Of a stretch of 16,912 nucleotides of DNA, positions 3,873-5,276 are shown piece after piece (within the stretch, counting starts at the first letter, position 1; each line of letters opens with the position of its first letter). Location: the IMG/VR virus record IMGVR_UViG_3300035438_001155, positions 1-16,912 of that record. One strand, 5' to 3'. This DNA is from a virus. The notes below the pieces were generated by a model, which saw nothing but the letters and a program-made list of their open reading frames with translations, was not told where the DNA came from and searched no databases. The position numbers and the translations under genes are program-made.

Positions 3873-5276
3873 ATGCAGCAAACACCGCGATTGGTAATTT
3901 TGGGATTTGGCAGCATTGGCAGTGGGTTGTTGCCATTGTTGCTGAATCATTTCCCAGCTGAAAACATCACCATAATTGGTGGGGATAATAGAAACATCAA
4001 CATCAGTGCCAAATATGGTGTTGCTCATGTGATATGTGCTATAACACAACAAAATTACCAAACGGAACTGGCAAGATATCTCCAGGCTGGTTACATGCTG
4101 GTGAATTTGAGTGTGAATGTCAGCAGTGAAGCTCTGGTGGAATGGTGTGAGAGCAAGGATGTTATGTATTTGGATACCTGTATTGAACCCTGGGAAGGCT
4201 ATTACACCAATACAAAAATCAGTCCTGAACGTCGCAGCAACTACAGCCTCAGACAGGACATACTGGACATGAGGAGAACCTGGCAGAATCTGGGCAAGCC
4301 TCTGGGTGCCACAGCCATCATGGCACATGGTGCCAACCCAGGATTGGTGAACCATTTTGTCAAGAGAGCTCTTTTGCATGTTGCTGCCCAGGTAAACCAT
4401 GCAATATCTGCACCTCCCCAAACCCAGCAAGCATGGAGCAAACTGGCCCAGACATTGGGATTGAAGGTGATCCACATTGCTGAAAGAGACACTCAACGTC
4501 CTAGAGCCCCCAAACAAAGAGATGAATTTGTCAATACCTGGAGTATTGATGGATTTGTCAGTGAGGGACTGCAACCCAGTGAAATGAGCTGGGGAACGCA
4601 CGAACAGATGTTTCCCACAGATGGCAACAGATTCAGCTGGGGATGCAAAACAGCCATTTGGCTGAACAGACCTGGATGTGTGACACAATGCCGCAGTTGG
4701 ACACCCAATGAGGGAGAATATCGTGGATGGATCATCACTCACAATGAGAGTATCAGCATTGGTGATTATTTCAGCAATCATTATTACAGACCCACTGTTC
4801 ACTATGCCTATCACCCCTGTGACAGTGCTGTGCTGAGCATTCATGAAATGGCAGGTAAAAATTTCCAACAACAAACACATCAGCGTTTGATTGTCAATGA
4901 AATTGAGGATGGCATGGATGAACTGGGGGTGTTGTTGATGGGAACTTTCAACGGCAATCACTATGCCTACTGGTATGGCAGCCAACTGGACATTGATACA
5001 GCCAGATCTCTAGCCCCCTACAACAATGCCACCAGCCTACAAGTGGTGGCCCCAGTGCTGGCAGGCATTTTGTATGCCATTGACAATCCCATGCTGGGTA
5101 TTGTGGAAGCTGATGAACTGCCTCATGAACAAATCCTAGCCATAACAGATCCCTACATGGGGCAAATGACTGGCTCTTGGACTGATTGGACTCCACTCAA
5201 AGATCGTGGCAGGTTGTTTGTGGAAGATGTGGACACAACTGATCCCTGGCAATTCAAAAATTTCCGAGTGGTGTAA
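3873..5276 (+). CDS. hss: homospermidine synthase (NAD-dependent; bacterial/chlorovirus HSS family)
   Basis: Full-length, 467 aa. N-terminal Rossmann motif ILGFGSIGSGLLPLL. Blocks VNLSVNVSS, HIAERDTQR, VNTWSIDGFVSEGLQPSEMSWGTHE, SWTPNEGEYRGWIITHNESISIGDYF, YRPTVHYAYHPCDSAVLSIHEM, YWYGSQLDIDTARSLAPYNNATSLQV and C-terminal DPWQFKNFRVV are collinear with recalled bacterial HSS. RBS AAGGAGA 7 nt before the ATG. Confidence 0.9.
   Translation: MQQTPRLVILGFGSIGSGLLPLLLNHFPAENITIIGGDNRNINISAKYGVAHVICAITQQNYQTELARYLQAGYMLVNLSVNVSSEALVEWCESKDVMYLDTCIEPWEGYYTNTKISPERRSNYSLRQDILDMRRTWQNLGKPLGATAIMAHGANPGLVNHFVKRALLHVAAQVNHAISAPPQTQQAWSKLAQTLGLKVIHIAERDTQRPRAPKQRDEFVNTWSIDGFVSEGLQPSEMSWGTHEQMFPTDGNRFSWGCKTAIWLNRPGCVTQCRSWTPNEGEYRGWIITHNESISIGDYFSNHYYRPTVHYAYHPCDSAVLSIHEMAGKNFQQQTHQRLIVNEIEDGMDELGVLLMGTFNGNHYAYWYGSQLDIDTARSLAPYNNATSLQVVAPVLAGILYAIDNPMLGIVEADELPHEQILAITDPYMGQMTGSWTDWTPLKDRGRLFVEDVDTTDPWQFKNFRVV

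Follow-up and report, generated by a model that had tools for sequence, protein, structure and literature searches.

An intact bacterial-type homospermidine synthase gene under purifying selection in a lineage of huge tailed phages

The gene at positions 3873-5276 of the window, by which we mean the whole stretch of 16,912 nt (16.9 kb) analysed here, is a genuine and intact bacterial-type homospermidine synthase (HSS) gene, its enzyme family being confirmed by both sequence and fold. It very probably encodes a functional NAD+-dependent HSS (EC 2.5.1.44) of an uncultivated huge or jumbo tailed phage, whose lineage gained an alphaproteobacterial-type gene in one acquisition and has kept it since. 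The gene and its immediate surroundings comprise the following features:

3603-3706, no strand assigned: filler of 104 nt (66% GC) at a deletion junction between a truncated orf3282 homologue and the release-factor-like remnant
3707-3859, plus strand: 3' remnant of a release-factor-like gene (GGQ, RF-1 domain), last 50 codons plus stop, detected by tblastn
3859-3864, plus strand: Shine-Dalgarno sequence AAGGAG, read directly, 8 nt before the ATG of HSS and overlapping the TAA stop of the remnant (3857-3859)
3873-5276, plus strand: coding sequence of the bacterial-type HSS, ATG to TAA, 467 aa
5284-5312, plus strand: promoter-like TTGACA-N17-TATATT (11/12) just past the HSS stop, a consensus match only
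5543-6280, plus strand: ORF of 245 aa with no assigned family, at the position of the R2K ATP-grasp gene of relatives
6440-6508, plus strand: final 22 codons and stop of a gene for an R2K-clade ATP-grasp amidoligase, left as a remnant
6512-7114, plus strand: gene of a PP-loop ATPase, a homologue of the TilS catalytic domain only, 200 aa (Pfam ATP_bind_3, 1.7e-30)

A preliminary description of this DNA had proposed a full-length HSS, and the 467-codon ORF together with end-to-end matches to HSS entries of the PDB bears this out. All 14 PDB sequences matched by phmmer (E<=1e-3) are homospermidine synthases, with E-values of 5.3e-138 for 2ph5, 1.6e-135 for 4xq9/4plp and 3.2e-120 for 6y87, and the protein is ~50% identical to the solved bacterial enzymes over its full length. 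A Pfam scan recovered both halves of the saccharopine-dehydrogenase-like fold above the gathering score, i.e., Sacchrp_dh_NADP (PF03435) at residues 8-140 with 92 bits and Sacchrp_dh_C (PF16653) at residues 153-433 with 97.5 bits; scans of the protein against NCBIfam and PHROGs gave no family match. The AlphaFold (AF2) model has a pLDDT of 92.2 and superposes on the HSS of Blastochloris viridis (BvHSS; 4xq9) with a TM of 0.94 and an rmsd of 1.8 Å. In Foldseek, HSS structures reached TM 0.91-0.94 at 41-47% identity, whereas carboxyspermidine, lysine and saccharopine dehydrogenases reached TM 0.48-0.62 at 10-13% identity, with carboxyspermidine dehydrogenase being the next family after HSS (TM ~0.60, 11-13% identity). 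Saccharopine dehydrogenase and deoxyhypusine synthase (DHS) had been named beforehand as families to which the protein might belong instead. Judging from these distant fold matches, we rejected an identity as saccharopine or carboxyspermidine dehydrogenase. A DHS-like HSS (SpeY, plant HSS) was likewise rejected, as PF03435 and PF16653 are the sole Pfam matches, with no DHS domain among them, and the PDB matches contain no DHS. An ORF of 396 aa on the opposite strand (3795-4985) falls inside the HSS gene and was discarded as a shadow ORF.

The active site is intact. The expected NAD-binding motif GxGxxG is present as G11-F-G13-S-I-G16; in an alignment of 40 sequences (A1), the first two glycines (G11, G13) never vary, and at least 90% of the sequences retain G16. 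Substrate binding and catalysis in BvHSS employ N162, E210, W229, E237, H296, E298, Y323 and D361 (Krossa et al., PMC4725965). All eight are kept in the window enzyme (N155, E204, W223, E231, H290, E292, Y311 and D349) and are invariant across the 40 homologues of the same alignment; the earlier caution that catalytic residues might be missing thus did not materialise. The enzyme is apparently functional and predicted to form sym-homospermidine from putrescine. For its catalytic activity, its time of expression and its physiological role, we propose the following scheme. By analogy with the enzyme from Blastochloris viridis, tightly bound NAD+ would oxidise one putrescine to 4-aminobutanal under release of ammonia, assisted by the Glu-His-Glu triad (E231/H290/E292) and by W223. 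A second putrescine would then form a Schiff base, which the NADH would reduce to sym-homospermidine; the aminobutyl group may also come from spermidine. Phage replication, translation and DNA condensation all require polyamines. Expression of HSS during infection would convert the putrescine pool of the host into a triamine, which may aid translation, offset the charge of a very large genome, or both. A putrescine-producing enzyme was not seen near HSS.

Compared with BvHSS, seven residues of the pocket or the entrance are exchanged (D94N, V115C, V116I, F122Y, F124T, D125N and E232D), and kinetics or donor preference could therefore differ as well. It is improbable, though, that specificity has drifted so far that the enzyme mainly employs spermidine as donor, releasing 1,3-diaminopropane, or accepts cadaverine or other diamines, and that its role is to deplete or remodel the polyamines of the host. 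[quoted passage not shown] However, the residues of the inner site, the centre site and the triad are all identical to those of BvHSS, D94 is likewise not conserved in the Legionella enzyme, and the differing positions are common to, or variable among, ordinary bacterial HSS in alignment A1.

Returning to a homospermidine-forming enzyme retained by a phage lineage, we placed the gene among its homologues. It belongs to one HSS clade of ~49 metagenomic protein clusters and IMG/VR contigs of 119-310 kb. Judging from neighbour-joining (NJ) trees, the only type of HSS tree employed here, this clade is monophyletic in 99/100 bootstraps and includes the HSS of phage phiRSL1 or phage Motura in 0/100. 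It nests within the alphaproteobacterial-type HSS, apart from phiRSL1, Motura and the chloroviruses; the preliminary description had suggested a tree with chlorovirus, cyanobacterial and alphaproteobacterial enzymes, and those of the chloroviruses came to lie on a distant branch. The sister sequences of the clade sit in bacterial contexts. Among 185,579 cellular species genomes, the best HSS match is 58% identical and none reaches 60%. The GC content of HSS is 0.47, as in its phage neighbours, whereas the closest five HSS genes checked in named Alphaproteobacteria (L048-L094) have 0.63-0.67. HSS is maintained by purifying selection in the phage lineage and is not a decaying passenger. Its dN/dS is 0.07 against L004 and 0.11 against L001 (approximate values, with dS near saturation), the very same protein occurs in 57 index blocks, and only remnants are left of the two flanking genes, whereas HSS itself is complete. 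It is an old, vertically kept gene of this phage lineage and not a recent addition. We propose a single acquisition by an ancestor of the lineage from an alphaproteobacterial-type source, separate from the events that gave phiRSL1, Motura and the chloroviruses their HSS genes, and purifying selection on the gene ever since.

HSS thus stands intact between two scars of gene loss, the release-factor-like remnant upstream and the R2K remnant downstream. The 138-nt 'intergenic' stretch before HSS consists mostly of the former, whose translation (ERGDKIRTMRFQDD...NNHCR*) is 84% identical to residues 135-184 of the RF-1-domain product of L004 (tblastn, E 8e-27). Intact RF-1 ORFs of 110-184 aa end 13-15 nt before HSS in L004 and L132-L133, so that in close relatives HSS follows the release-factor-like gene in an operon-like layout. 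The homology of orf3282 to the relatives ends at codon 107, and the filler at 3603-3706 has no match in them. A ribosome-binding site and a candidate promoter had both been ascribed to HSS. The former is confirmed by the AAGGAG sequence, and the latter was not recovered: a sigma-70 consensus scan found no promoter-like site upstream of HSS, and the number of promoter-like sites in the scanned region (3200-7200) was not above shuffled expectation. The site at 5284-5312 would serve the downstream genes and not HSS.

Downstream, the R2K remnant is fused to a signal-peptide-like start within a 48-aa ORF (6362-6508) and matches the C-terminal end of the R2K proteins of L001 and L006 (266 aa) with 21 of 22 residues identical (tblastn); the R2K protein of the relatives matches Pfam R2K_3 with 1.9e-17. 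The preceding 245-aa ORF (orf5543) has no Pfam or PHROG match, is 65% identical in L004 and 31% identical to an ORF elsewhere in L001. We rejected it as a diverged R2K ATP-grasp, as it shows no similarity to the R2K protein. The PP-loop protein matches TilS in the PDB (1wy5, 1e-11), and its gene is syntenic and 52-76% identical in L001, L002 and L004-L009, being the conserved downstream partner of HSS. Its best phage matches are found in uncultured phages of 635-642 kb and in PA5oct-like jumbo phages. Further downstream, orf11247 was considered as a polyamine acetyltransferase and dismissed, since Pfam related it only weakly (E 4e-6) to the C-terminal domain of malonyl-CoA decarboxylase and the PDB gave no significant match.

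The conserved partner raises an alternative that we judge unlikely, namely that homospermidine is not the end product and that an amidoligase or the TilS-like enzyme conjugates it to a carboxylate, a peptide or a nucleic-acid base, comparable to hss-gss clusters. Several observations point this way: the 266-aa R2K amidoligase is encoded exactly between HSS and the PP-loop gene in L001-L003 and L006-L009, its remnant is still present in the window, an R2K homologue lies 6.6 kb from HSS in a second clade of viral HSS (L015), the HSS-PP-loop adjacency is kept in L001, L002 and L004-L009, and hss is clustered with glutathionylspermidine synthetase in Motura and several Betaproteobacteria (PMC9992855). 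However, the ATP-grasp gene has been lost from the window and its copies of 99.9% identity as well as from L004, where HSS is intact and constrained; HSS therefore works without the ATP-grasp enzyme. In L005, HSS directly abuts the PP-loop gene with no ATP-grasp gene between them. Phages without HSS, namely PA5oct-like ones and those of 635-642 kb, encode PP-loop homologues (43-44% identity), and the more distant clade members L010 and L044 have no PP-loop neighbour. In relatives, moreover, the TilS-like gene is directly followed by a tRNA(CAU), the classical lysidine substrate of TilS. Since the ATP-grasp gene was lost, PP-loop phages without HSS exist and L010 and L044 lack the neighbour, the adjacency is explained by shared descent. 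We rejected it as sufficient evidence of a functional link, the pair being limited to the closest sub-lineage and PP-loop homologues being present in phages without HSS.

Still less probable is an ancestral cassette of HSS, R2K amidoligase and TilS-like enzyme, with tRNA(CAU) downstream in some relatives, that made a polyamine conjugate and not free homospermidine. One version of its product might be an amide of homospermidine, as a counterpart of glutathionyl(homo)spermidine. A bolder one might be a polyamine-modified wobble cytidine in the phage tRNA(CAU), with lysidine, which carries lysine, and agmatidine, which carries agmatine, as analogues. If such a cassette existed, the window would represent a derived state that has lost the ATP-grasp step. 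Within the window, we found no glutathionylspermidine synthase (GSS) like that of Motura or other GSS-like sequence, none of the GGACT, DAO-type oxidoreductase, aldolase II and glucosaminidase genes that lie near HSS in relatives, and no convincing remnants of the relatives' suppressor tRNA(CUA) and tRNA(CAU).

The reading we favour, a free-standing HSS of a huge phage, also has to account for the origin of the window. As no capsid, terminase or portal gene lies within the 16.9 kb, the phage assignment rests on context and relatives. HSS is flanked by phage-type genes on both sides, and the phage-type setting described before holds: the window contains two tRNAs, homing endonucleases (GIY-YIG and HNH), a fibre of 930 aa that carries a Peptidase_S74 chaperone domain and matches virion or tail-spike families in PHROGs (E 1e-113 to 1e-142), and TilS-like and vault-like genes whose relatives in phage databases are only huge or jumbo phages. 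Relatives with the same gene order lie on IMG/VR viral contigs of 119-310 kb and on metagenome contigs of 168-485 kb. The 39 HSS loci in IMG/VR came from an alignment-based search, the sole search type that found them; the IMG/VR single-protein search with HSS and an exact 42-nt pattern search gave no match, and a DNA-level search of gene and whole window against 50,697 phage records returned nothing except a 42-nt tRNA match. The preliminary description had placed HSS in an accessory region. Mobile endonucleases and indels are indeed abundant, but a block comprising HSS, the PP-loop gene and several genes further downstream is conserved among related phages. That the window comes from a bacterial chromosome or from cellular DNA that was mis-binned, and carries an ordinary housekeeping polyamine gene, as could be argued from the missing capsid and terminase genes, the wide occurrence of HSS in Alphaproteobacteria and the exact protein on contigs filed under two NCBI GCA assemblies, is very improbable, given that every flanking gene is phage-like or an orphan (with a tail fibre PHROG match at E 7e-142), that the synteny is with IMG/VR viral contigs, that 0 of the 185,579 cellular species genomes carry an HSS above 58% identity, and that true bacterial HSS loci have TCA-cycle, sigma-54, ABC-transporter or UvrC neighbours.

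Phage-encoded HSS is already known, although rare, and the phage gene described here adds a new example. The locus represents a third independently acquired phage HSS lineage and the largest in our analysis, with ~49 protein clusters and contigs of up to 310 kb in IMG/VR and up to 485 kb in metagenomes. The strong constraint on HSS in huge phages, while its neighbours came and went, argues for a real benefit of homospermidine synthesis. The lineage is thus a candidate system for asking whether very large phages raise triamines for their own translation apparatus or for genome packaging.

Polyamine enzymes encoded by viruses form an established class of auxiliary metabolism, and the HSS of phiRSL1, chloroviruses and Imitervirales make homospermidine (PMC9992855). 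The earlier statement that viral HSS is known from chloroviruses and unusual in tailed phages stands as to rarity, but the gene is not limited to chloroviruses, judging from the biochemically validated enzyme of Ralstonia phage phiRSL1, the homologue in Motura (both PMC9992855) and the 39 IMG/VR loci. Among cellular enzymes, those of B. viridis (4PLP/4XQ9) and Legionella pneumophila (2PH5) share fold, length and catalytic and substrate-binding residues with the window HSS; they are housekeeping enzymes, and a few of their residues at the entrance and in the loop are different. Among cellular sequences, the nearest (55-58% identity) are alphaproteobacterial (Acidocella, Reyranella, Enhydrobacter and related MAGs). 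Their genes have a high GC content and metabolic or transport neighbourhoods, and they stand apart from the phage clade (99/100 NJ bootstrap). Among the viral loci, L040 of IMG/VR (330,611 bp) is presumably chlorovirus PBCV-1, a giant virus of eukaryotes that encodes the whole pathway from arginine to homospermidine. The PBCV-1 enzyme belongs to the same family as the window HSS and is virus-encoded and functionally validated (PMC9992855), but is only ~33% identical and sits on a distant branch of the tree. Achromobacter phage Motura (221 kb) encodes a homologue (QDH83686.1) with 33% identity over 89% of the query, on a separate branch. Its amidoligase gene two genes downstream of HSS resembles the HSS-R2K order of the window's relatives, although it encodes a GSS and not an R2K ATP-grasp enzyme. 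The HSS of phiRSL1 (ORF110, BAG41554.1) is, like that of the window, a two-domain enzyme of the bacterial type (~480 aa), encoded by a jumbo tailed phage (231 kb). However, it is just 40.9% identical, falls into another part of the HSS tree and has different neighbours (NUDIX, topoisomerase IB and dCMP deaminase-like genes), which together indicate that the two phage lineages acquired their HSS independently.

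The homospermidine synthase (HSS) gene is an uninterrupted ORF of 467 codons that runs from ATG to TAA at exactly 3873-5276 on the plus strand. The presence of a full HSS gene far exceeds chance, which confirms the observation made in the preliminary description, and its claim of an own ribosome-binding site also holds, as a Shine-Dalgarno sequence (AAGGAG, 3859-3864) lies upstream with the ATG 8 nt further on. A 396-aa opposite-strand ORF (3795-4985) falling within the HSS gene was rejected as a shadow ORF. Pfam assigns residues 8-140 of the product to PF03435 (92 bits) and residues 153-433 to PF16653 (97.5 bits), two halves that together make up a saccharopine-dehydrogenase-like fold, and detects no deoxyhypusine-synthase domain. 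A search of all PDB sequences returned homospermidine synthases only, matching end to end, from Legionella (2PH5, E 5.3e-138), Blastochloris viridis (4PLP/4XQ9, E 1.6e-135) and Pseudomonas aeruginosa (6Y87, E 3.2e-120). The ORF, both domains and these matches bear out a full-length enzyme. No family match was obtained in NCBIfam and PHROGs, which we read as gaps in these libraries.

The GxGxxG motif for NAD binding is intact, as described earlier, and reads G11-F-G13-S-I-G16. In the B. viridis enzyme (BvHSS), substrate binding and catalysis involve N162, E210, W229, E237, H296, E298, Y323 and D361, and the variants N162D, E237Q, H296S and E298Q are inactive (PMC4725965). A scripted pairwise map places these residues at N155, E204, W223, E231, H290, E292, Y311 and D349; all eight are identical to BvHSS and invariant in an alignment of 40 HSS homologues. 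Most other pocket residues are kept as well (T114, E117, Y123, N135, L138, P163, S236, Q240, T295, N297, Y325 and T396). Differences are confined to entrance or loop positions (D94N, V115C, V116I, F122Y, F124T, D125N and E232D). An altered substrate preference is possible but improbable. An AlphaFold2 model built on the same alignment (mean pLDDT 92.2, pTM 0.92) superposes on 4XQ9 with a TM-score of 0.94 and an rmsd of 1.8 Å at 47% identity, while the next-best families, the carboxyspermidine, lysine and saccharopine dehydrogenases, reach only 0.48-0.62 at 10-13% identity. These data establish enzyme family, active site and fold. The HSS-like fold, the kept residues and the absence of a deoxyhypusine-synthase domain thus speak against both a different family (saccharopine or deoxyhypusine synthase) and missing catalytic residues, which had been named as possible refutations. 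Judging from HSS chemistry (PMC4725965), bound NAD+ would oxidise one putrescine to 4-aminobutanal and release ammonia, another putrescine would form a Schiff base and NADH would reduce it to sym-homospermidine; spermidine might serve as an alternative donor.

The gene has a phage setting, as shown by the following features of the window:

tRNA-Gln and tRNA-Arg(UCU) genes
599-1273, minus strand, homing-endonuclease-like ORF, low GC
2145-2987, minus strand, GIY-YIG homing-endonuclease-like ORF, low GC
6512-7114, plus strand, PP-loop protein of 200 aa, homologue of the TilS catalytic domain (Pfam 1.7e-30; PDB TilS 1e-11)
7074/7152-9644, plus strand, major-vault-protein-like ORF of 830-856 aa (Pfam MVP_shoulder 3.7e-19, Vault_3 3.8e-07)
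9965-10537, minus strand, HNH homing-endonuclease-like ORF, low GC
PTH2 peptidyl-tRNA hydrolase gene
14085-16877, minus strand, repetitive fibre of 930 aa with many NTAVG-type repeats and a C-terminal Peptidase_S74 chaperone domain

The fibre matches tail-spike or virion proteins in PHROGs (E 1e-113 to 7e-142). Within a collection of 50,697 phage records, the TilS-like protein has its best relatives in PA5oct-like Pseudomonas jumbo phages and in uncultured phages with genomes of 635-642 kb, and the vault-like protein is related solely to proteins of uncultured huge phages (LR756500, LR756501 and LR756503; 462-735 kb; 37% identity). We conclude that the window is part of the genome of an uncultivated tailed phage of huge or jumbo size, with the caveat that it has neither a capsid nor a terminase gene. 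An identical HSS protein is recorded in 57 index blocks, and none of the contigs that carry it is longer than 20 kb; three of these contigs are 99.9% identical to the window. All three cease to match the window within the fibre gene (15155-15276), where two of them also end. The fibre repeats probably break assemblies, which would explain why no piece of this phage above 20 kb is seen. The vault-like ORF is 80% identical in L004, a contig with an HSS homologue, and is missing from the corresponding place in L001, L005 and L006-L009. The three endonuclease-like ORFs have a GC content of 0.37-0.40 vs 0.44-0.53 in their neighbours. Their insertions are polymorphic between strains, since L130, a contig elsewhere 99.9% identical to the window, has other sequence in place of the GIY-YIG region (2123-3219), and L129 carries a different endonuclease set.

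Upstream of HSS, orf3282 is homologous to its relatives only as far as codon 107 (position 3602). After this point come 104 nt of 66% GC that are unmatched in relatives (3603-3706), a filler at a deletion scar, and then the final 50 codons of a GGQ-containing RF-1-domain protein (3707-3856; 84% identity), with a TAA stop (3857-3859) that overlaps the Shine-Dalgarno sequence of HSS. The RF-like gene is intact in L004 and in two contigs of 91%-identical HSS (L132 and L133), ending 13-15 nt before HSS, and the ancestral layout looks operonic. As the remnant fills most of the region, the proposed intergenic stretch with a candidate promoter is largely a gene remnant, and a consensus scan found no promoter upstream of HSS. 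The L004 counterpart of 3603-3859 spans about 2.9 kb, with GGACT, class II aldolase, small ORFs and the full RF-like gene. A GGACT/AIG2-family (gamma-glutamylamine cyclotransferase-like) gene adjoins the orf3282 homologue in L001 and L004, and L001 also has a DAO-type FAD oxidoreductase gene a few kb from HSS (regions concerned: L001 3012-4757 and L004 1916-2353); both genes were sought in the window and are absent. GGACT/AIG2-family enzymes free amines from gamma-glutamyl conjugates, and such release in the relatives could be relevant to polyamine supply.

Downstream, in L001-L003 and L006-L009, HSS is separated from the PP-loop gene by a gene for an R2K-clade ATP-grasp amidoligase of 266 aa. 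Its place in the window is occupied by orf5543, which has no assigned function:

5284-5312, plus strand, promoter-like TTGACA-N17-TATATT, 11/12 consensus match, directly after the HSS stop
about 6284-6312, plus strand, promoter-like TTGACA-N17-TAGGTT, directly after the orf5543 stop, conserved with L004
6440-6508, plus strand, last 22 codons of the R2K gene, 21 of 22 identical to relatives

The R2K remnant is fused to a signal-peptide-like N-terminus (MKKILALAAVILSAGVSQAQA) in a 48-aa ORF (6362-6508), which gene callers predict as a gene in near-identical contigs. A perfect 8-bp GC-rich hairpin (6323-6341) follows the second promoter-like element. HSS itself belongs to a block conserved among relatives, together with the PP-loop gene, orf11247, PTH2, orf12757, orf13164 and orf13557; the auxiliary-gene reading was right, but "accessory region" is only partly apt, and the earlier interpretation is thus supported in part. 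The 164-aa orf11247 product (11247-11741, plus strand), present in all close relatives, weakly matches the malonyl-CoA decarboxylase C-terminal domain (E 4e-6), which has a GNAT-like fold, and has no significant PDB sequence match.

The HSS neighbourhood is conspicuously translation-related (tRNAs, TilS-like gene, PTH2, RF-like gene). The relatives have a tRNA(CAU), a likely tRNA-Ile2 substrate, directly behind the TilS-like gene, as well as a suppressor tRNA(CUA), with Thg1 and YqeY also in the vicinity:

tRNA(CAU)/tRNA(CUA) sites in relatives: L005 10034-10121; L006/L009 12861-12934; L001 18182-18256; L005 11882-11957; L006/L009 14677-14750

Neither tRNA is found in the window. The amber-suppressor tRNA(CUA) sits after the orf11247 homologue, a hint that TAG may be reassigned or suppressed in these phages. 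Phage replication needs spermidine-type polyamines, partly via translation (PMC9992855). HSS would raise the triamine pool of the infected cell, and we favour translation support as its role; neutralising the charge of DNA packed into a very large capsid may be a second benefit. That HSS instead supplies a homospermidine conjugate, made by the R2K ATP-grasp or the TilS-like enzyme, seems very improbable: the synteny of HSS, R2K ATP-grasp and PP-loop gene in relatives and the hss-gss clusters of the Achromobacter phage Motura and Betaproteobacteria (PMC9992855) would suit it, but the ATP-grasp was lost in the window while HSS remains constrained, there are phages that lack HSS but have PP-loop homologues, and the adjacent tRNA(CAU) is consistent with ordinary lysidine formation. 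Selection on the gene is seen in dN/dS values of 0.07 vs L004 (85% amino-acid identity) and 0.11 vs L001, which are approximate because dS is close to saturation.

A protein search returned about 49 metagenomic clusters (P0001-P0049) at 64-91% identity, and 60% or less from P0050 down. Where checked, the gene neighbourhoods of these high-identity sequences are those of phages:

L001-L003, collagen-like, glucosaminidase, I-TevI and HNH genes; identical protein recorded on contigs as long as 462 kb
L004, gene order as in the window, vault-like gene included
L044, 485-kb contig with many hypothetical genes, Thg1 and numerous tRNAs
L005-L010, IMG/VR UViGs, up to 310 kb

Matches at 56-60% identity have bacterial neighbours wherever these were checked (TCA-cycle genes, sigma-54, ABC transporters or UvrC). 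Among 185,579 bacterial and archaeal species, with one genome each, no cellular HSS exceeded 58% identity; the top matches came from the alphaproteobacterial genera Acidocella, Reyranella and Enhydrobacter, and many others from MAGs labelled Alphaproteobacteria. A bacterial origin of the contig is contradicted by its phage-like gene content and by the lack of any close homologue in the cellular genomes scanned. The window gene (GC 0.468, GC3 0.479) is in line with its phage neighbours; the five nearest HSS genes checked from named Alphaproteobacteria (L048-L094) have a GC of 0.63-0.67. In the neighbour-joining phylogeny, an analysis the preliminary description had proposed, the window clade is monophyletic in 99 of 100 bootstraps and nested in the alphaproteobacterial type in all 100, none places phiRSL1 or Motura inside it, and chlorovirus HSS (L040, presumably PBCV-1) is distant. 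Most plausibly, the gene was acquired once, long ago, and has been kept by vertical descent since, which makes this a third phage HSS lineage, independent of the Ralstonia phage phiRSL1 and Motura.

Functional HSS is documented for PBCV-1, phiRSL1 and two Imitervirales viruses (Harvovirus and Tupanvirus soda lake), and a homologue was identified in Motura (PMC9992855). In the phage collection, phiRSL1 and Motura alone carry HSS (four records in total), and IMG/VR holds 39 HSS loci in several clades, so the rarity had been overstated in the preliminary description. Literature full texts on homospermidine with jumbo phages or auxiliary metabolic genes yielded nothing beyond PMC9992855. The huge-phage HSS clade therefore seems undescribed, though HSS as such is already known from viruses and phages.
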